Assembly: GCA_965216325.1 (NCBI GenBank)
Contig: OZ244160.1
Span: forward strand, 1,280,001-1,344,000
DNA length: 64,000 nucleotides
Source: Coraliomargarita sp.
GTDB taxonomy: Bacteria > Verrucomicrobiota > Verrucomicrobiia > Opitutales > Coraliomargaritaceae
Direction: 5' to 3'
In this document: positions 2,427 to 41,227 of the stretch, one piece after another
How the letters are laid out: every line of letters begins with the position of its first letter
How positions within the stretch are numbered: position 1 is the first letter of the stretch
Translations under genes and position numbers: made by a program
The notes under the pieces: model-generated
Seen by the model: the letters and a program-made list of their open reading frames with translations, nothing else
What the model was told of the DNA's origin: nothing
Databases searched by the model: none

Positions 2427-3078
2427 GAAAATTATAACCATAACCAACTTGACCACGAAACTCTGAAATATGCTTTCCATGAATATGAGTCTCTTGATCA
2501 TAGCTTGAAAATGCACCTAGCAATTTGGCCTGTCTCTCTACTGTTTCCATCGAAAAACTCTGAATACAGTCATTCTTAGTGCCTTCATCGATTCGAAATC
2601 CCATAAACGCTTCTATTTGAGAGAACAAGTAAGGCCAGTCATCAAAAAAATCTTCATAGCGAAGTATCAGCGCTCGCGAGTTACCCTTTAGATTCAACAA
2701 ATCCCACATTCCATTCCGGTCAAACTCTTGAATTTGTTCATCTACAACTTCAACCGTTGGTTGTTGTTCATAGCGCTGAATCGATGAAGCAATACTGTCC
2801 AACGGATTGCGAATACTAGCAACGACCTTGGGGCTCATAAAATCGGACTTCCGACGCGTATCGTAACAATGGACTTTCATCACTTCGTGCTTTGGACACA
2901 CTGTCCTTAAGACGTTCCAAAGCAGAGTGCTTCCAGTTCGAGGAGGGCTGAATTGTATCAACCTCGGACTCCGAACTTCCCTGATATAACGTATGATTTT
3001 TTTCACACCTAAAACACCGATCAACCCGTTAAGAAAAGCGAATTTAAGATCAAATTCCCTCGAGATAAACCATAACAT
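2427..3078 (-). pseudogene. Sulfotransferase-domain protein, 3' end cut by ISL3
   Basis: PAPS-binding loop SPPRTGSTLL and LRYED; no stop before the ORF enters the IS right end (reads to 2383); start uncertain. Confidence 0.7.
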
Positions 3079-4093
3079 CTGCTCGAACTTCATCCTGATA
3101 CTTGGAAAAACTTGCACATAAAGAGCGATACTTCGCATCCAACTCCAAACGACGATTCAGCTTAACCAATGCCTTTTGATCCTTCAACAGCCGACAAGCA
3201 AACCGCTTAATACGATAACGGACTCGAACAGGGAGCGACAACGGTCGATGCGAATGCTCGAAATAACAGTTCAAATCAGCTCCCTCCATCCAGTTCGGAC
3301 GCAAACGTTCCAACCACAACTGGAAATACAAAAAAGTGCCCTCTGGTCGCTTTCCAAGCCAAGGCTTAAAATAAGTTATGAAATGATAGTTTACACCATT
3401 CAACTCCAACTCATTCATACAAACACCTCGGGCATCTGAATTCCAAACTTCTGGAAGAAACTGCACGCGCCCCTTCAAAATATAATTTAGTGCGGTCTGA
3501 TCCCAACAACGACAAACACTAGGATCCCGCTCGATTAAATCCATCGTCAAGCGCCCAACATTCGCCTTACGCCAATAAGCCAGATCAATTAGCATGACAC
3601 CGGAATTGAAATAAGGTAATGCTCCCTCTGACTCATCATGAGGCCATGGACAATCATCGCGCAGCAATGGAACCACCTGATCTTGAACCACCATAGCACA
3701 CTTCCCAGGAGCAAACTCTCGCTGCCACAACCAAGCGAGATCAAGACCGATCAAGATATCAGAATCAATATATATCACACGCTTGAGATCGACTAACTGA
3801 GGCAGCAACAAACGAGCATAGGCCATCGGGCTCGCATGCAATTCCGACACCCGAAAACCATCAAACAGATTGAGATCAATAACGTGACGAATACAGACAA
3901 CATCAGCACATCGACGCTCCAACACATCGCATAGAAAAGCGTAATCCACATCCTCAAGACCACCATCCAATACGTGCACCACTGGCCGATAAGCCTCACT
4001 CAAATGCGCAAGTGCGCTATCTAAGGTCACCAACAACCCATAGAAATAATGCGTATCTGCACCTGAAACGATGTGAATTTCATCCTTTAACAT
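3050..4093 (-). CDS. Glycosyltransferase family 8
   Basis: YARLLLP, IYIDSD (DxD), YFNSGVMLIDL, DQTALN, HF..KPW. Confidence 0.9.
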   Translation of the reverse strand: MLKDEIHIVSGADTHYFYGLLVTLDSALAHLSEAYRPVVHVLDGGLEDVDYAFLCDVLERRCADVVCIRHVIDLNLFDGFRVSELHASPMAYARLLLPQLVDLKRVIYIDSDILIGLDLAWLWQREFAPGKCAMVVQDQVVPLLRDDCPWPHDESEGALPYFNSGVMLIDLAYWRKANVGRLTMDLIERDPSVCRCWDQTALNYILKGRVQFLPEVWNSDARGVCMNELELNGVNYHFITYFKPWLGKRPEGTFLYFQLWLERLRPNWMEGADLNCYFEHSHRPLSLPVRVRYRIKRFACRLLKDQKALVKLNRRLELDAKYRSLCASFSKYQDEVRADVMVYLEGI

Positions 4094-4203
4094 TTGCCGA
4101 AAGAGAACACATCCTTAGAAGGCAACCAAGACATTTAGGCTAAAAATAGACCAAAGCATACAAACTAACACGGGTGCACACATGTACAAAAGAACGCTAC
4201 AAA

Positions 4204-5121
4204 ATGAAAATCAGCGTCTTAATAAACAACTACAATTACGGAAACTACCTAGATGAATGCCTGAGCTCAGTCTTCGCACAGACGCTCCAAGCCCATGAGA
4301 TAATTGTAGTTGATGACGGTTCCACCGATGATTCCGTCGAAAAACTCAAACCTTATTGCGCACACATCAAACTGATTCAGCAATCTAACCAAGGGCAGGC
4401 AGCAGCAATGGCGACCGCTACACTTGCGGCAACTGGCGACCTCTTTTGCTACCTAGACTCTGACGATAAATGGCGCCCCGCACACCTTAAAAGAATCTAC
4501 ACAGCCTTCCAAAGACCTGAAGCACCAGACATGGTCTATACCAACCTTGAATCGTTTGACCAAGCTTCTGGATTACACGGAACCTCCGACGTCATACTCA
4601 CCCAAGATACGTTCATACCTACAAGTCAACAATTGGCATTCTGTAGAATATTTGTCGGAGCCCCCACGTCAGCAATTGCCATTAAAGCAAGCTACGCACG
4701 CAGTCTATTTGCACCGAAGCACATCCACCAACTCATTGCTACTTGCGGTAAAGTAAATGGGGACGAAATCCTAATTTACGGCTCCTCTCTTATCGGCTGC
4801 GCGAAATTAGCACTGGCTGAGCCAACTGCTAGCTATCGAATTCACGGACAAAACAACTATTTCGGCATCCGTCAAAGTTTGCAAGACAAGCAACGGAAAG
4901 AACGCATCATACGGCTAATCGCCGAGCAACACTCTGTCCGTCGCTGCATGCGTAGCCTACAAGCTGAGCTAATTAAAAACTCCCCCCACCTACCACACAC
5001 ACACACCTACAAACGAGGCTACCTAAAAGCACCGCGACGACTAGGCCTAACAGGCATCAGAAAATACTACTGGAAATTTCGCCTGAAGCAGACCTACACA
5101 AAATACGCATCTCACACCTGA
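4204..5121 (+). CDS. Glycosyltransferase family 2
   Basis: ISVLINNYNY, VVDDGSTD, YLDSDD. Confidence 0.9.
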   Translation: MKISVLINNYNYGNYLDECLSSVFAQTLQAHEIIVVDDGSTDDSVEKLKPYCAHIKLIQQSNQGQAAAMATATLAATGDLFCYLDSDDKWRPAHLKRIYTAFQRPEAPDMVYTNLESFDQASGLHGTSDVILTQDTFIPTSQQLAFCRIFVGAPTSAIAIKASYARSLFAPKHIHQLIATCGKVNGDEILIYGSSLIGCAKLALAEPTASYRIHGQNNYFGIRQSLQDKQRKERIIRLIAEQHSVRRCMRSLQAELIKNSPHLPHTHTYKRGYLKAPRRLGLTGIRKYYWKFRLKQTYTKYASHT

Positions 5122-5124
5122 TCC

Positions 5125-5709
5125 ATGGATAACGTCTGGCTCAACTCGGCCCTCTTAAACACACGGCCCTCGACCGCCATCTTCGCCGACCGCGATGGCA
5201 CCCTCATCCGTCATGTCGACTACATCAGCGACCCCGAGCAAGTCGAACTACTGCCCGGTGTCAAAGACAGCGTCCACCGACTCCTCGACCGCGACACACC
5301 CTTCTTCATCCTAACCAATCAGTCCGGCGTCGGGCGAGGCTACTTCCCCATCGAACAGGTCCATGCCTGCCAAAAACGCCTCTTTGAACTACTGGAACTC
5401 CAACCCACCGATATTGCAGGCTGGTGTATCGCGCCGGAAGCCCCCAGCGAGACAGGCGGCTACCGCAAACCCTCACCTCGCTTCATAGACGAAGCCTGCC
5501 AACACCTAAACGTCTCCCCAAAGCAGTGCCACATGATCGGTGACACTCTGGTCGACCTTGAAACTGCATGGGCCAGCGGCGCCCATGCGTGGGCCGTAGA
5601 ATGCGGCAAGCCCCAACTGCCCCAAGCACACCAGCAGCACCAACTCACCGGCGGCCCCTACAGCATACGCAAAGACTTCGCGGGCTGTATCAGCGAAATT
5701 ATAGGCTAG
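5125..5709 (+). CDS. gmhB: D,D-heptose-1,7-bisphosphate phosphatase
   Basis: HAD motif DRDGTL, TNQSGVGRG, RKP, MIGD; heptose cluster context. Confidence 0.85.
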   Translation: MDNVWLNSALLNTRPSTAIFADRDGTLIRHVDYISDPEQVELLPGVKDSVHRLLDRDTPFFILTNQSGVGRGYFPIEQVHACQKRLFELLELQPTDIAGWCIAPEAPSETGGYRKPSPRFIDEACQHLNVSPKQCHMIGDTLVDLETAWASGAHAWAVECGKPQLPQAHQQHQLTGGPYSIRKDFAGCISEIIG

Positions 5710-5774
5710 TCTCTGCTCAAGAATCACTGATACTGGAACTTTTCACAGTTTTCAGCATCTTTCCCGTTCGAATT

Positions 5775-6773
5775 ATGAGCACAGGTAAATACACTCTCGT
5801 CACCGGCGGCGCCGGCTTTATCGGCAGCGCGCTGGTGCACGCACTCAACCAAGAGGGCATGACCGACATCGTCATCTCCGACATCCTCGGCACCGACGAG
5901 AAATTCAAAAACCTCGTGCCGCTGCGCTATGCGGACTACCTCGAAGCCGACGACCTGATCGACCTGCTGGAAGAAGAGCCGGACTATCTCGACCAATTCG
6001 ACACCATTTTCCACCTCGGAGCCTGCTCGGCGACGACCGAAAAAGACGCCAGCTACCTGATTCGCAACAATTACGAATACACCAAGGTGCTCGCCAACCT
6101 GTCCATCGAACGAGGTATTCGCTTCGTTTACGCCTCCAGCGCCGCGACTTACGGCGACGGCAGCCAAGGTATGGACGACCGCCTCGAAGACCTCCACACC
6201 CTCAATCCGCTCAACATGTATGGCTACTCGAAGCACATGTTCGACCTGTATGCACAGCGCATGGGCTGGCTCGACGAAATCGTTGGCCTGAAATACTACA
6301 ATGTCTTCGGCCCCAATGAGGCTCACAAGGGCGACATGCGCAGCCTCGTCGCCAAGTCTTACGAACAAATTCAGTCCACCGGCGAAATTGGTCTCTTCAA
6401 GAGCTACCACCCGGACTACACCGACGGCAACCAGATGCGCGACTTCCTCTACGTCAAAGATGCCGTCGCCATGACACTGCACCTGGCACGCACACCGGAT
6501 GCCAACGGCCTCTTCAACCTCGGCAGTGGCCAGGCCAACACTTGGAACACCCTCGCCGAAGCGATCTTTGCCGCGCTCGAGTTGGAGCCCAACATCCGCT
6601 ACATCGACATGCCCGATCAACTAAAGGGCAAATACCAATATTACACCTGCGCCGACACTGGAAAATTACGCGAAACCGGATACACCAACGAAGGCTATAC
6701 CCTTCAGGATTCCGTGAAAGACTACGTGCAAAACTACCTCGTCACCGGCAAGCACCTAGGGCAGGAAGGCTAA
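5775..6773 (+). CDS. hldD: ADP-L-glycero-D-manno-heptose 6-epimerase
   Basis: TGGAGFIGS, HLGACSAT, YASSAATYG, YGYSK; ATG 5775 preferred over the longer ORF. Confidence 0.95.
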   Translation: MSTGKYTLVTGGAGFIGSALVHALNQEGMTDIVISDILGTDEKFKNLVPLRYADYLEADDLIDLLEEEPDYLDQFDTIFHLGACSATTEKDASYLIRNNYEYTKVLANLSIERGIRFVYASSAATYGDGSQGMDDRLEDLHTLNPLNMYGYSKHMFDLYAQRMGWLDEIVGLKYYNVFGPNEAHKGDMRSLVAKSYEQIQSTGEIGLFKSYHPDYTDGNQMRDFLYVKDAVAMTLHLARTPDANGLFNLGSGQANTWNTLAEAIFAALELEPNIRYIDMPDQLKGKYQYYTCADTGKLRETGYTNEGYTLQDSVKDYVQNYLVTGKHLGQEG

Positions 6774-8008: not shown

Positions 8009-8075
8009 GGTAGGGTTCGTTATCCCTAACGAGCCGCCACAGATTTCGGCACGATAAGGATATCGCGCCCTACCG
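8009..8075. repeat. GTAG-family REP doublet (REPIN-like)
   Basis: GGTAGGG...CCCTACC; right arm 8047-8075 identical over 29 bp to 28598-28626. Confidence 0.8.
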
Positions 8076-12660: not shown

Positions 12661-13116
12661 CGGGATGGCTGCCCTCAGCCGTCCGGAATGGCACTACCTT
12701 AAGGATCATTACGGGCTGGATGTTCTATTGCGGTATAGACTGTTTAAAGCTCAGGGGGAGGTGGTTTGTTGCTGTGTTATACCATACTGTAACTTTCCCC
12801 GTTAGAAAGGTAGGGAGGTCTGCCCCGACTCGACCTGAGCTCGTCGCAGGTCAGACCTCCGGCGGCACTCGCTCCGACTTTCGGAGGCATGAGGGCATGC
12901 CTCCCTACCCAACAATAGCATTCGTTCTACCAGAAATAGTTGAAGACTGGTATTATAGACCTTTCTTCGGCCATACCCCTCCGTCTGCTTTCGCAGACAC
13001 CTCCCCTTGGCGGGGAGGAGCTATTTGTCTCTGAGAATTCTTAAATTTGCCTTAAGGTAGTGCCATTCAGGACGCACCTGCGCGATACCGGACGCATGAG
13101 GGCATGCGTCCCTACC
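12661..13116. repeat. Nested repeat cluster: REPIN interrupted by an IR-bounded segment holding further REPs
   Basis: 19-bp perfect IR at 12686-12704 / 13050-13068; inner REPIN 12809-12909; hairpin repeat 12976-13020; outer arms 12661-12685 and 13089-13116. Confidence 0.75.
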
Positions 13117-13125
13117 CCTTGTCAT

Positions 13126-19526: not shown

Positions 19527-19796
19527 ATGGAAGCAATACGATACTCGACAGGCGAAATCGTAAAGAAAGGCGATCAAGTCGTGATCACCCATTCACTGGC
19601 TTCCAGACTTATTTCGATCCTAACACTTAAGCCTAAAGGAAAAACAGAAAAAGGAACTGTTGTAGGAGTCTACGATCCCGATCAGCCAATAATTCCAAAT
19701 GGAGAAAATGAGTATGGGATCTGCATCAAGTATCCGGATGGCCATTGGAGCTGGGGAGTCCCAGGAAGCGAAACCAAACTTAAACGAAGAAACTAA
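19527..19796 (+). CDS. Hypothetical protein, gene cassette 1
   Basis: AT-rich 89-aa ORF bounded by the core site and attC. Confidence 0.7.
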   Translation: MEAIRYSTGEIVKKGDQVVITHSLASRLISILTLKPKGKTEKGTVVGVYDPDQPIIPNGENEYGICIKYPDGHWSWGVPGSETKLKRRN

Positions 19797-19799
19797 AAC

Positions 19800-19855
19800 A
19801 CCGAACCCTGAAGTTATCAATCGCGCGCAGCCGCGTTGATAACTGATTGTTGAAC
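19800..19855 (+). other. attC site 1
   Basis: ACCGAAC ... AGTTATCAA/TTGATAACT stem ... GTTGAAC. Confidence 0.8.
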
Positions 19856-20154
19856 AAGCCCGCCCTTGGATTAACGGCGCGGCTTAGTATATGCGAAACG
19901 CTTTTGGCGGCACTGCTGGAGGGGCGTTCGGATCGACGCGGCTAGGAGATTTGTAAATCTCAAGCTGCGGCAGGCATGTGGTTTTCCGGCATCATGCCGT
20001 AAAACCACATCAGCACAGAGAGTTGGTGTGGGCGCAGCTAAATAATGGCGTTTTCGTATCCACGCTACGGATACATCCCAAAAACGGGCACAAGCAAGCA
20101 CGGCCCAAATCTGATGGGATTCGGGGCTGCGGCCTGTCTGTTGAACACGGTTGA

Positions 20155-21258
20155 TCATTTGCGGTAAAGTAAGGCGGTGCTCAGCGGTGGGCCACGGACT
20201 GGACGGAGCTTGCCGACGCGGTGCAGCTGCCCCTCGCAACAAGGACAACGCAGAGGCTGTTCTTCAGGTAGTTGGATCGCAGGTGCACGGCCGCCGAGCA
20301 GGAAGCGCAGCCTGCGGTATTTATCCCGCGCGGCAGCTGAGAGGGTGCCATAGTGCCGCACGCGTGTCAGCCCCTTGGGCAGAACATGCAGCAGCCAGCG
20401 GCGTATCAGCTCGGCGGGCTCAAGAGCCATCAGCCTGCGCTGGCCCGTAGCCGAATCGGTCCACCATAGCCGCACACGCCCTTGCGCATCGTAACCAGCC
20501 AGACGTTCTTCACTGAAGGCGCTCTTGCCCACATACGCCGCGAGGTAGCGTAGTGCACGTTTGCCACGACCAACCGGTTGAACGTTCACGTTCCAATCCA
20601 TACGCGCGAGTTGTGGATCCAGTTCAGCAGACCGGCCCGGATGTTTCTCGCGCAACGCACGCAGGAACTGGTCGCGATAGCTGCGCGCCAGCGCGGCATA
20701 CGGCAACAGGTAGTTCTCGTGCTTGGCGCGGATTACTTCGCATCCGCTCTGGCTGAGTGCAGCGGCAGGCACGAGCACGTGCACATGCGGGTGATACTGC
20801 ACTTGCCGTGTCCACGTATGCAGCACCGCCACAAAGCCCGGCTCGCCACCAAAGTGCTTCGGATTGGCAAACAGTTCTTTGATCGCTCCAGAGCTGGCCG
20901 CGAACAACAACTGATAGGCGACCCGGTCGTAGCGCAGGAAGAACCCGCGCAGTTGCTCGGGCACCGTGAAGGTCAGCATGAAGTATGGCACCGGTAAGCG
21001 GCGAGCCTGTTGGCGTGCTGACCACAGCTGCTGCGTGCGCCCTCCACAACTCGGACAGGCTCGATGGTTGCAGCTGTGATACACATAGTGCTCACGCTCG
21101 CAACTGGCACACAGGTGCACATGCCCGCCCAATCTAGACGTGCGACAACTCAAGACGGCTTCGACTGCTCGCCAGTGTGCGGCAGGGATCTTGTGTGCCC
21201 CGCCGCGCGCGCTGACATACTCCGGCCAATGCCGCCGCAGTAGATCGGCCAGCCTCAA
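20155..21258 (-). CDS. IS91-family rolling-circle transposase
   Basis: Zn-binding N-domain (C..C, HSCNHRACPSC), HUH HPHVH, YLAAY (YxxxY), RVRHYG; TTG start overlaps recombinase stop. Confidence 0.93.
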   Translation of the reverse strand: MRLADLLRRHWPEYVSARGGAHKIPAAHWRAVEAVLSCRTSRLGGHVHLCASCEREHYVYHSCNHRACPSCGGRTQQLWSARQQARRLPVPYFMLTFTVPEQLRGFFLRYDRVAYQLLFAASSGAIKELFANPKHFGGEPGFVAVLHTWTRQVQYHPHVHVLVPAAALSQSGCEVIRAKHENYLLPYAALARSYRDQFLRALREKHPGRSAELDPQLARMDWNVNVQPVGRGKRALRYLAAYVGKSAFSEERLAGYDAQGRVRLWWTDSATGQRRLMALEPAELIRRWLLHVLPKGLTRVRHYGTLSAAARDKYRRLRFLLGGRAPAIQLPEEQPLRCPCCEGQLHRVGKLRPVRGPPLSTALLYRK

Positions 21259-22220
21259 CGCTTGCTGCGCTTCGACAAGGCCGGAGCGATCACACTGTCA
21301 AACAGTGCGCTCTGGCTCTGGCGGCCACCTTCTTCACTTAGCTCGGTTACATGCAGATACACCAGCGTGCTCTTCAGTTCCGAGTGGCCGAGATAGCGAC
21401 TGACCTGACGAATCGACACCCCGTCCTCCAGCAAATGTGTGGCAAAACTATGCCGCAAGGTATGCACCGTGAAGTGCTTGTTGATGCCACTATTGGCGCG
21501 GATGATCCGCATCGCCATCTCCAGCGCCGAGCTGCTCATCGGCTTGGCGCTGCGGTGCATCGCCTGCGCCTGAGAGATGCCTGACTGCTTCCAGCCGCGC
21601 CCCACGCCAGGGAACAGCCAGTCCGGATTGCGGTGGCACTTATAAAATGCCCGCAACCGCTTGACCATTGCCGGGCAAATCGGCACCTCACGCGCCTTGT
21701 TGCCCTTGCCATGGCGCACGCGAACGACGCCGCGTCCAGAGTGGATATCCGTCGGCTTGAGCTGCAAGGCCTCCTGTAAACGCAAACCACAGTGATAGAT
21801 CAGCGAGAGCACCGCCCGAAAGCGACCCTCATGCACACAGGCCAGCACACGCCGCACCTCGTCGCGCGTGAGCACGCTCGGCAAAGGCTCGCGCCGCTGC
21901 AGCGTGAACTCCGACCACAGCTTCCACTCCCGGGCCAGCACATCACGGTAAAGCGTCCGAATCGGCACCAGCGCCTGATTCACCGTTGACGCGGCCAGCT
22001 TTTGGTCGTCGCGCAGGTAGATCAGATAGTCCAACACCTGACGTTCCGATAGACGGCGCAACCCCGGGCCCTTCGGTTGGTAGTGCTCGCCCAAGCGATT
22101 GACCCAATCCAGATAAGCCTTACGACTACGAGGCGAGTGAGCTTTGCTATGGACATGCGCATAGAACTGTTGATACGTTTGCGAACACTGAGTCTTTGAT
22201 GATTTGGTATTTTTTTTCAT
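21255..22220 (-). CDS. Tyrosine recombinase with SAM-like N-domain
   Basis: CGLR, GKGNK, HTLRHSFATHLLE, LGH, catalytic Y (LVYLH); the IntI-type RRHH patch was not seen. Confidence 0.92.
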   Translation of the reverse strand: MKKNTKSSKTQCSQTYQQFYAHVHSKAHSPRSRKAYLDWVNRLGEHYQPKGPGLRRLSERQVLDYLIYLRDDQKLAASTVNQALVPIRTLYRDVLAREWKLWSEFTLQRREPLPSVLTRDEVRRVLACVHEGRFRAVLSLIYHCGLRLQEALQLKPTDIHSGRGVVRVRHGKGNKAREVPICPAMVKRLRAFYKCHRNPDWLFPGVGRGWKQSGISQAQAMHRSAKPMSSSALEMAMRIIRANSGINKHFTVHTLRHSFATHLLEDGVSIRQVSRYLGHSELKSTLVYLHVTELSEEGGRQSQSALFDSVIAPALSKRSKR

Positions 22221-22324
22221 CCGGGCAGGTTGGGGCAACTCAGCCTAGCCCGGAACTTTTGACTTTAGAAACCACCCACCAAGACGCCCAAGCACTTAAC
22301 CAACAGCCGCCGCGCAGCGGCTTT

Positions 22325-22353
22325 GTTCAACCAGACGCATTGAGCAACGGCTA
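22325..22353 (+). other. Left half of an attC site (truncated)
   Basis: R'' GTTCAAC then CAGACGCATTGAGCAACGGC, similar to the left arms of the other attC sites; no right arm found. Confidence 0.55.
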
Positions 22354-22495
22354 TACTTACGTCAGATTCTGGGTGATCGAGCTGTTTTTGATCCTTCTGG
22401 TGGCCATAGCAAGCTTGCCGATCATCCTCCCACACTTCCGGAAGACAGATCAAGGCGGAGTGATCAACTCCGAGTCGCTACGCTCCTCTACTTGA
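22352..22495 (+). pseudogene. 3' fragment of a membrane-protein cassette gene reading into its attC
   Basis: YTYVRFWVIELFLILLVAIASLPIILPHFRKTDQGGVINSESLRSST*; no plausible own start. Confidence 0.5.
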
Positions 22496-22515
22496 TCATG
22501 CTCCACGCTTTGGCT
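22445..22515 (+). other. attC site 3 (degenerate)
   Basis: GGAG-TGATCAA ... TTGATCA-TG-CTCC stem with GAG.CGCTACGCTC tip; R' reads G(CT)TTGGCT, complementary to AGCCAAC at 23077. Confidence 0.7.
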
Positions 22516-22565: not shown

Positions 22566-22808
22566 ATGACTACTGTCACAGCAACTAAAGCGAGAAATAG
22601 CCTTTATAGCTTAATTGATGAAGCGAATGAATCGCACATCCCCATTCAAATTACAGGGAAGCGAGGTAATGCTGTGCTGGTTTCTGAAGATGATTGGAGA
22701 GCAATCTCCGAAACCATTCATCTCAGCATGATTCCTGGCATGATCGAATCGATCAAAGAAGGAATGAATGAGGAAATTGAAGACTGCAGCGACACTTTAG
22801 AATGGTGA
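22566..22808 (+). CDS. yefM: Phd/YefM-family antitoxin
   Basis: ATKARNSLYSLIDE, PIQITGKRGNAVLVSEDDW..ETIHL. Confidence 0.9.
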   Translation: MTTVTATKARNSLYSLIDEANESHIPIQITGKRGNAVLVSEDDWRAISETIHLSMIPGMIESIKEGMNEEIEDCSDTLEW

Positions 22809-23068
22809 ACTATAAACTTGTTTTCACTAAACAAGCACTGAAGGACGCAAAGAAACTCTCAAAAAGTAACCTCAGGAAAAAAGCTGAAGACTTACTGGAA
22901 ATTCTAAAAGAGAATCCCTTCAAGAAACCGCCCGAATACGAAGCTCTCGTTGGCGATCTTCAGGGGAGCTATTCAAGACGAATAAACATACAGCACCGTA
23001 TTGTTTACCAAGTCTACGAAGAAGCGAGAATAGTGAAGGTTATCCGTATGTAGACTCACTACGGATAA
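22802..23068 (+). pseudogene. yoeB: Txe/YoeB-family toxin with premature stop
   Basis: YEALVGDLQGSYSRRINIQHRIVY; ends VIRM-TAG-THYG-TAA where the family has MWTHY. Confidence 0.85.
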
Positions 23069-23076
23069 TAGAAATG

Positions 23077-23133
23077 AGCCAACGAGTCGTCAGGGGACAA
23101 GGCCTAAAGGCGCGCCCAGACTCCACGTTCGAG
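23077..23133 (+). other. attC site 4
   Basis: AGCCAAC-GAGTC ... GACTC-CAC-GTTCGAG. Confidence 0.75.
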
Positions 23134-28486: not shown

Positions 28487-28626
28487 GGTAGGGCAGTCTC
28501 GCCGAGACAGCCGTTCGCCAAGGTGTATAAACGATACGAATCTCGTGGATTCAACTTCACCCAAGGCATGAAGCAGTCGCCGCAATTCAAAACGGGGCGG
28601 CACGATAAGGATATCGCGCCCTACCG
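28487..28626. repeat. GTAG-family REPIN between convergent genes
   Basis: GGTAGGGCAGTCTCGCCGAGACAGCC ... CGGCACGATAAGGATATCGCGCCCTACCG. Confidence 0.8.
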
Positions 28627-40983: not shown

Positions 40984-41227
40984 GCAGGGGCTTTTCAAGC
41001 GAAGCCCGCAAGACGCTAATTGGCCACGAATACCACTTTGGTAAAGGTTCGACCTGGATTCGGGCTTTAGGGACGACAGTCTCTAGCGGTCCGAGAAAAT
41101 AACTACGTTCGGACGCTTGTGGGTATGTGCCCCTACCAAAACCGCCAAACCTTCTTCAAAACAGAAAACGGACTAAACTCCACCATTCAGCCTGAGCTTC
41201 TGATCGAAGGCAAACGAAGCCCCTACG
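40984..41227. repeat. Degenerate REP cluster (IS110 target)
   Basis: GCAGGGGCTT..GCGAAGCCC at 40984, partner GAAGCCCCTAC near 41216-41226, inner REPIN 41067-41137. Confidence 0.6.

Follow-up and report, generated by a model that had tools for sequence, protein, structure and literature searches.

A two-gene IS91-family element with an IntI-like recombinase, probably homing to integron recombination sites in Coraliomargarita

Several insertion sequences (ISs) of the IS91 family with an upstream integrase gene, such as ISShvi3, ISAzo26, ISSde12, and others, are listed in ISfinder. Among other mobile elements, attC hairpins are targeted in a single orientation by IS1111-attC elements and by group IIC-attC introns, while in CTX phage a rolling-circle HUH protein gives single-stranded DNA, the folded hairpin of which is recombined at dif by a Xer-type recombinase through one strand exchange. 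According to the parts of PMC13181058 that deal with the IS91 family, IS91 uses a bottom-strand single-stranded circle, the ori ends of IS91 and IS801 carry two subterminal palindromes, and the ter end of IS801/IS1294 consists of a palindrome followed by GTTC. Relevant passages of other papers describe the IS91- and IS3-linked recombinases as the closest homologues of IntI, without its insertion (10.1101/542381), note ISShvi3 beside an attC and place group IIC-attC introns antisense to cassettes (PMC9229058), and mention CTX integration together with integron cassettes as tyrosine-recombinase insertion resolved by replication (PMC9345347). In the present study, we analyzed a stretch of 64,000 nt (hereafter the window) from the Coraliomargarita sp. 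contig OZ244160.1 (positions 1,280,001 to 1,344,000), in which window positions 19806-22330 probably represent an autonomous two-gene IS91-family IS that homes to integron recombination sites and in which the translation of an IntI-like tyrosine recombinase is coupled to that of a Y2-HUH transposase.

The unit, which carries its recombinase and transposase genes on the minus strand, comprises 2,525 bp (19806..22330) and was delimited by the block common to three copies and by an empty site. The Coraliomargarita genome (3.06 Mb, one contig) contains three copies with 99.4-100% identity, located at window positions 19806-22330, at 815791-818315 in the same orientation (copy 2), and at 2841920-2844445 in the reversed orientation (copy 3); the unit is thus mobile and has moved within this genome. 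The common block extends from 19806/7 (C-CCTGAAG) to 22330/34, taking in a hairpin at 19813-19843 together with the motif GTTGAAC and stopping at GTTCAAC (22330/31), and the unit limits are uncertain by one base at either side (19806/19807 and 22330/22331). The bases CAG after GTTCAAC are common to the copies, yet they are also the usual continuation of attCs here (RYYYAAC followed by (C/A)AG(A/T)CG), and the attC-like arm downstream lies outside the unit because the three copies part ways 3 nt past GTTCAAC.

A preliminary description of this DNA had placed the unit at 19849..22353 and read it as a self-mobile plus-strand integron cassette, with the hairpin upstream assigned to the attC of the preceding cassette (attC1). 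The features on which it was built are present, including GTTGAAC at 19849-19855, its exact complement GTTCAAC at 22325-22331, the minus-strand pair of recombinase and IS91 HUH transposase genes between the two motifs (confirmed with Pfam), and an attC-like left arm after 22331 that matches the resident attC consensus. However, neither these limits nor the plus-strand orientation and permutation hold for the transposing unit in the light of the copies and the empty site, and the hairpin, being common to the three copies, belongs to the element. What survives of the self-mobile cassette is its mobility, a cassette-like form, and the integron crossover; as well, the proposed tie to integron att sites is borne out, since all three copies lie in attC R'' boxes.

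These R'' boxes of resident attCs are split at RYYYAA|C on the cassette-sense strand without duplication, and the cleaved-strand flanks of the three copies read ACCGAA, ACACAT, and GCCTAA. In the same-genus genome G017, in which no transposase homologue was found, the empty site ...ACCGAA-C-CAGACG-TGGTGAGC...GTTAGCA forms an intact attC after the orthologous cassette, indicating that insertion occurred at AA|C or AAC| within the R'' box and duplicated no target bases. The lack of target-site duplication that characterizes the IS91 family was therefore observed directly between the empty and the filled site. The register is narrowed by copy 2, whose left flank (ACACATC) is complementary at 7/7 positions to GATGTGT, the unusual R' box of the attC before it; the AT of this flank is therefore resident sequence, and the crossover is AT|C or ATC|, which excludes GTTC| at this locus. 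IS91-style cleavage at GTTC| was accordingly ruled out by copy 2 as the insertion register in this genome. No identity of 6-8 bp between element and target was found around the crossover in the three copies and the empty site, which argues against a classical two-strand exchange by a tyrosine recombinase and favours a one-strand event, either integron-like or HUH-like. Moreover, the crossover falls at the phosphodiester cut by IntI, yet on the opposite strand, a difference that points to enzymes of the element itself. Extrahelical bases are carried by one arm in canonical attCs, and the cut in both partners here falls in the arm with the extra bases, at the top-strand R'' box, forming a mirror image of the bottom-strand reaction of IntI. 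In public sequencing runs, contigs break at 19806 and 22334. A marine metagenome contig (run X5) was also observed to carry the left end of the element (19803) behind another flank, ...TAGTGA before GAAC, a junction that would mark a fourth site of insertion, in a different population.

The ori-side, attC-like module (19806..19855) is 100% identical in the three copies, its layout is repeated in relatives, and it consists of a spacer (19806-19812), a hairpin stem-loop (19813-19843), a second spacer (19844-19848), and an R'-type box GTTGAAC (19849-19855). The module folds at -11.1 kcal/mol in place, and its pairing with the ter end closes an R stem of 8 bp. A second subterminal ori palindrome (19856..19885; AAGCCCGCC ... 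GGCGCGGCTT) was read from the sequence and seen in the fold. The ter end (22306..22330), also identical in the three copies, is composed of a palindrome (22306-22321), TTT, and GTTCAA, and the final C of its R''-type box GTTCAAC (22325-22331) is shared with the target. As in IS801/IS1294 of the IS91 family, a palindrome is thus followed by GTTC (22325-22328), while the crossover lies 2 nt further. Read in the sense of the genes, the unit starts with TTGAAC and a palindrome, continues with the recombinase and transposase genes and GGGCTT-GTTCAAC, and ends with the hairpin, which has a spacer of 5 nt before it and one of 6 nt after it, and with a G, beyond which the bases are the TTCGGT, ATGTGT, or TTAGGC of the target in the three copies.

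When the ends were joined in silico, the junction folded at -16.2 kcal/mol, with an R stem of 8 bp followed by a 5/4 internal loop and a stem of 9+4 bp that has one bulge; 500 mononucleotide shuffles gave -4.3 +/- 1.8 kcal/mol, and none of them was as low. The ter and ori ends would therefore rebuild an attC-like hairpin in a circular form, as far as the predicted fold goes. The extra bases of the element hairpin are located on the 5' arm of the plus strand, and those of the resident attCs on the same arm of the cassette-sense strand, which means that the hairpin shares the polarity of the residents and only the genes are backwards. The manner in which cassettes start and end is also seen on the minus strand, which starts with TTGAAC and closes with the hairpin, TTCAGG, and G.

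The recombinase gene (21255..22238, minus strand) encodes a protein of 327 aa that matches Phage_integrase (E 5.4e-36) and SAM_4 (E 2.5e-16), with a probable ATG at 22220 and a stop codon overlapping the transposase start by 4 nt (TTGA). Its catalytic set R-K-H-R-H-Y is intact in the alignment (R153, K178, H259, R262, H285, and Y294). The IntI model TIGR02249 gave 188.9 bits in two stretches, which is under its cut-off of 265, while the Xer models gave 136.7-146.3 bits; IntI4 (2a3v) is the closest solved relative (E 9.2e-38), followed by Xer proteins at E 2e-24 to 1e-18. The IntI insertion region is shorter in the recombinase (residues 197-232, 36 residues) than in IntI4 (179-240, 62 residues), and a block of about 32 aa present in the three local IntIs is missing in the alignment from all 22 IS91-linked recombinases. 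A tree of 27 sequences, which was rooted by midpoint only and from which the read-through sequence L051 was left out, separated IntI and the IS91-linked recombinases from two host Xer proteins with 100/99 support, and IntI fell in an unresolved polytomy among the IS91-linked recombinases. By sequence, the recombinase is IntI-like, lacks the IntI insertion, and is not an IntI, which agrees with the statement on IS91- and IS3-linked recombinases in the relevant part of 10.1101/542381.

The transposase gene (20155..21258, minus strand) encodes an IS91-family Y2-HUH transposase of 367 aa (Y2_Tnp, E 4.2e-43; Zn_Tnp_IS91, E 5e-29), which reached 339.3 bits with NF033538 transpos_IS91 against a cut-off of 125. 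The HUH residues H156/H158/H160 and the tyrosines Y238/Y242 are invariant in 13 aligned transposases, and a Cys cluster is located in the N-terminal part. The A-run after the probable recombinase ATG (22210-22218) is A8 in copy 1 as well as in copy 2, and it is longer by one (A9) in copy 3 (at 2.842 Mb), where the recombinase frame is 320 aa rather than 329 aa; this change could be a slippage switch or could mark an inactivated copy.

Three true intI genes are present in the genome (358.2, 357.5, and 339.6 bits with TIGR02249, cut-off 265), and copy 2 lies 3.7 kb from one of them and copy 3 about 10 kb from another, while the window locus is a cassette cluster without intI, as the preliminary description had it. 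A covariance model (R2) was built from 14 resident attCs, which had been chosen by eye from a loose regular expression with 240 mostly false matches, and it replaced a model with automatic structure and 6 pairs (R1). It matched 26 sites in the genome, including its own 14 seeds, in three arrays and in intI-less clusters; the matches in the window are at 22445-22513 and 23077-23133 on the plus strand. The right-hand hybrid sites, which join the GTTCAAC of the element to the remainder of the resident site, scored 49.9 and 41.0 bits with this model. As insertion creates two hybrid attCs, the stretch from 19849 to the next attC remains a formal unit that IntI could excise.

The element genes are antisense to the cassettes at all three local loci, and in the same-family relatives L020, L063, and L068 the model likewise placed the resident attCs on the strand opposite the element genes. 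Whereas an integron cassette is exchanged through its bottom strand at R' or attI and lies in the sense of the array, all six attC insertion events (c1-c3, L020, L063, and L068) are at R'' and antisense to the attC polarity. A targeting of the lagging-strand template was also considered and rejected, because only one of the three copies fits it and orientation follows attC polarity instead; for this purpose, the cumulative GC skew put the origin near 1.85 Mb (minimum) and the terminus near 1.1 Mb (peak).

To look beyond this genome, species-representative genomes were scanned, yielding 37 loci in Verrucomicrobiota, many Chloroflexota, and Gammaproteobacteria; 31 of these have the recombinase gene immediately upstream of the transposase, and the remaining six are at contig ends, truncated, or fragmentary. 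Within the bacterial family of the window, a transposase homologue was found in six of 101 genomes (this one included), and in none of three within the genus. The ends of the relatives, which were defined from pairs of copies, read (G/A)|TTGAAC-NAAGC(C)GC palindrome on the left and GGCTTA-GTTCAAC, 2-5 nt, a long hairpin, 6-7 nt, and (G/A)| on the right.

Their 26 insertion sites, which are not all independent (L027 and L029 look orthologous), have as flank consensus the integron core G|TTAGGC across three phyla. TT occupies positions 1-2 in 23 of the 26 sites, a pyrimidine is found at position 6 in all of them, the exact pattern TTRRRY occurs in nine (0.1 expected), and the consensus of these six positions is TTAGGC. 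Of the 24 sites that retain a left flank, 22 have a G before the crossover; of the remaining two, L033 has a T that is an indexing artefact at an internal copy-copy junction. The GTTC/CTTG tetranucleotide that IS91 targets at its ori end was not found; on the cleaved strand, the 26-site consensus is the complement of G|TTAGGC instead. The contig of L033 starts (1-260) with a partial right end joined at G|TTGAAC to a full copy, which represents a tandem arrangement or the assembled junction of a circle. With respect to hairpins, the fold of the 70 nt to the left of the site was ranked against GTT controls from the same locus and reached the most stable quartile in 12 of 21 cases and the most stable decile in five, and L023, L045, L048, and c3 are clear attC targets by fold, with more unpaired bases on the crossover-side arm.

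A tandem dimer in the complete genome of a member of the same bacterial family (L068; G067:C2:873000-884666) bears on the question of which enzyme cuts where. Two 100% identical copies lie there in an attC with a period of 2,492 bp, and their junctions read G|TTGAAC on the left, TTATTG|ATGAAC in the middle, and TTATTG|ATCTAC on the right. The AT of the right flank is native, as the other end of the cassette begins with G|AT, and hence the second copy starts with a dinucleotide derived from the flank (ATGAAC, not TTGAAC); all other left ends that were read, namely the '+' rows of a motif scan and the first G067 copy, carry TT, and the rows of that scan with GC, TG, CT, or AG fall within elements or elsewhere and are not left ends. 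This dimer hints, as a lead from one locus, that two enzymes cut 2 nt apart. It would be explained if copying out cut at GTTC| at the ter end and two bases beyond the element at the ori end, and if re-insertion then used the AA|C register.

On this basis, the following pathway is proposed for the element. As in IS91, the HUH transposase would release a single-stranded circle that consists of the strand antisense to the genes, and the hairpin of this circle would recombine with a folded attC, an attI, or a simple GTT site through a one-strand exchange that is completed by replication. The exchange would take place at the phosphodiester used by IntI but on the resident top strand, which would leave the element backwards in arrays. 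Most likely, the IntI-like recombinase would be responsible for integration and the HUH enzyme for copying out, a division of labour suggested by what is known of the two families and by the one tandem dimer with its registers 2 nt apart.

A number of observations weigh against this homing model. Nine of 21 sites lie outside the lowest quartile of flank stability (L028, L029, L031, L032, L034, L044, L045, L052, and the truncated c1), and L028, L029, L031, L032, L034, and L044 show no notable hairpin. Complementarity of R'' and R' with an ungapped stem was seen in one of 19 sites versus 56 of 3,998 background sites, and a minimum-energy fold closed by the R boxes in seven of 22; these strict attC tests were judged too strict for arrays, because R' comes from the next cassette, and they were replaced by the flank-stability percentile and the covariance model. 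Left hybrids with the element hairpin are absent from the 26 matches of the attC model, which is dominated by one attC family. IntI was found in just four of nine host genomes of relatives, all of them incomplete metagenome-assembled genomes (MAGs). In L052 and L054, where an intI is adjacent, the element lies in normal cassette sense at 136-200 nt from the intI start, which is what IntI-driven capture would give; the intI of L054 is an intact IntI-like open reading frame (ORF), while that of L052 is frameshifted (348 bits). In L052, a Chloroflexia MAG, both intI (2865-3829) and the element genes (4100-6100) were observed to be broken into several frames. Non-GTT sites are used by distant rhizobial relatives (36% identity) that have both genes; 2,514-bp units of recombinase and IS91 transposase, identical to each other, are present on pRL10 and pRL11 of Rhizobium johnstonii 3841 (L057 and L058), with ends GGATTGAAC...CCCAA, each just upstream of a different IS5-family transposase gene. 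The idea of two registers comes from a single locus, and a mechanism using the HUH enzyme alone fits most of the data; which enzyme cuts where is inferred. In addition, no circle junction or excision product was found in the contigs of four public runs, which is no evidence either way.

That mechanism, in which the Y2 transposase both copies out and inserts by recognizing RYYYAA| next to the foot of a hairpin, as attC sites happen to provide, and the recombinase is an accessory (a regulator or end-recognition factor in the position of IS91 Orf121, or a multimer resolvase), is the strongest competitor, although we consider it unlikely. HUH enzymes such as that of IS608 typically cleave 7-9 nt from hairpin feet, which counts in its favour, and so do the family palindrome and GTTC at the ter end, the rhizobial relatives that retain the recombinase yet use non-GTT targets, and the several targets without a hairpin. 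As described in the corresponding part of PMC13181058, IS91 TnpA alone inserts single-stranded circles, and Orf121, which occupies the same upstream, overlapping place, only modulates end recognition. It fits less well that the crossover AA|C sits 2 nt past the GTTC| of the family and that the target consensus GCCTAAC is the integron core rather than the complement of the element's own box. Furthermore, the recombinase is the closest kin of IntI and has kept its catalytic residues over phylum-level divergence, which is more than a regulator needs, and the G067 dimer requires two registers.

Much less probable is that the unit is an ordinary integron cassette, with the two genes as cargo, that the host IntI moves through the attC-like site. 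Three IntI genes are available in the genome, the unit has the cassette form and the IntI crossover position, and two relatives occupy the first position beside intI in cassette sense; but IntI is about 1000-fold better on bottom strands according to the part of PMC8946536 concerned, whereas all six insertions here use the top-strand R'' and lie backwards. The ends are conserved together with both genes across phyla, unlike the attCs of cassettes, the rhizobial relatives move without integrons, and relatives occur in the five of nine host genomes in which no IntI was found (all incomplete). IntI acting on the sense strand of the element was likewise rejected, as it would put the hairpin beside the ter end. 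Finally, a plus-strand cassette starting with G|TT at 19849/50 and owning the downstream attC is hardly credible, for despite the complementary GTTGAAC/GTTCAAC, the scores of the right hybrids (49.9 and 41.0 bits), and a stretch that IntI could in principle excise, the upstream hairpin is common to the three copies while the downstream attC is not, and the empty site puts the insertion point at 19805/6.

If the homing element is what we propose, the few elements that home to attC would be joined by a parasite that mimics a cassette and carries its own enzymes, and the integrase gene of an entire branch of the IS91 family, so far unexplained, would acquire a function. Each insertion turns one attC into two hybrid attCs and would thereby reshape cassette arrays. 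A more speculative extension, which we put forward tentatively, is that two-gene IS91 elements are self-contained 'proto-cassettes', in which HUH cuts at GTTC| to produce the single-stranded circle and the IntI-like enzyme, devoid of the strand-selecting insertion, recombines the folded hairpin at AA|C, 2 nt away, and that integrons descend from them or share an ancestor with them. If true, these elements would constitute a third, enzyme-carrying class of attC parasites that can rewrite arrays from the strand that IntI leaves unused. Because the 2.5-kb system encodes a generator of single strands together with the closest relative of IntI, both the source of cassette single strands and the origin of IntI and attC could be tested in it. 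The IntI-like nature of IS91-linked recombinases is already in print, as the relevant part of 10.1101/542381 shows, while the target rule, the end hairpin, and the orientation were not found in the full-text literature searched (supplements and subscription journals were outside its scope); there, PMC11023631 and PMC8876359 mention only IS911 and ISCR.

Around the element, the window contains the remains of the resident array. On its left, the plus-strand half-site 19800..19805 is the R'' box ACCGAA(C) of the preceding cassette, the attC of which is intact in G017. That cassette carries an ORF of 89 aa (19527..19796, plus strand), which has no Pfam or NCBIfam match and is 95% identical in DNA to its counterpart in G017, where an intact attC follows it. 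On the right, the left arm of a resident attC (22331..22353, plus strand) reads C-CAGACG-CATTGAGC-AACGGCTA and ends after CTA; the bases past 22331 (CAGACG, CATTGAGC, and AACGG) agree with the left arm of the attC consensus of this genome. After AACGGCTA, this arm is fused at a CTA microhomology to the 3' part of a cassette ORF (its final ~40 codons), a fragment that is 82-87% identical to the end of the cassette ORF beside the intI at 2.766 Mb, with homology from 22351. The L'' box of the arm, CATTGAGC, is unlike the TGGTGAGC of the orthologous empty site, and the fused arm and the differing box together indicate that the right flank was exchanged or deleted after insertion. The 3' ORF fragment and its attC (22445-22513, 29.4 bits) take up 22351..22513 on the plus strand, and a Phd/YefM-YoeB toxin-antitoxin cassette identified by Pfam (22566-22808 and 22802-23053) follows with its attC (23077-23133, 33.5 bits) at 22566..23133, also on the plus strand. 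A direct-repeat search of the window revealed no attCs, and the pattern CAACGGC was not enriched (17 matches versus 11.5 expected).

Several further features were observed in passing. The GC skew implies very unequal replichores of about 0.75 and 2.3 Mb. Two exact copies of a 29-bp repeat, separated by 20.5 kb, are present at window positions 8047-8075 and 28598-28626, and palindromic repeats of 29 nt that end in CCCTACC form a small family at 12882-12910, 13089-13117, and 41110-41138.

Compared with the known systems, the element shares with IS91, IS801, and IS1294 the transposase family, the absence of target duplication, the ter palindrome with GTTC, the two ori palindromes, and an overlapping upstream ORF. 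Unlike them, it targets the 7-nt integron core in attC hairpins rather than GTTC/CTTG, its crossover lies 2 nt beyond GTTC, its upstream ORF is a full tyrosine recombinase, and its ends pair into an attC-like hairpin. Judged from its transposase sequence and ter end, it is a member of the IS91 family that departs from the tetranucleotide target rule of that family. Its two-gene layout is the same as that of the two-gene IS91 members in ISfinder and of the 'Integron-like' subgroup of Smyshlyaev et al., to which this locus and its relatives add the target rule, the end structure, the crossover, and the orientation, none of which is given in the relevant parts of 10.1101/542381 or PMC9229058.

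Similar to integron cassettes and IntI, the element has an R''/L''/L'/R' hairpin that contains a bulge and an unpaired spacer, crosses over between AA and C (G|TT), follows a one-strand logic without a shared overlap region, and encodes a recombinase of the IntI clade. It differs from cassettes in that it uses the resident top strand (R''), lies backwards in arrays, encodes its own enzymes, and has ends conserved in sequence, while its recombinase differs from IntI in lacking the IntI insertion and falling under the IntI cut-off; it works like an integron cassette but is not one, on account of its orientation and strand. As IS1111-attC elements and group IIC-attC introns do, it probably homes to attC hairpins in one orientation, but those elements rely on other enzymology (a DEDD transposase, and a ribozyme with a reverse transcriptase, respectively) and have neither cassette mimicry nor the IntI crossover point. 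CTX phage, in turn, depends on a host recombinase and targets dif, whereas the 2.5-kb element would carry both enzymes itself and target attC.

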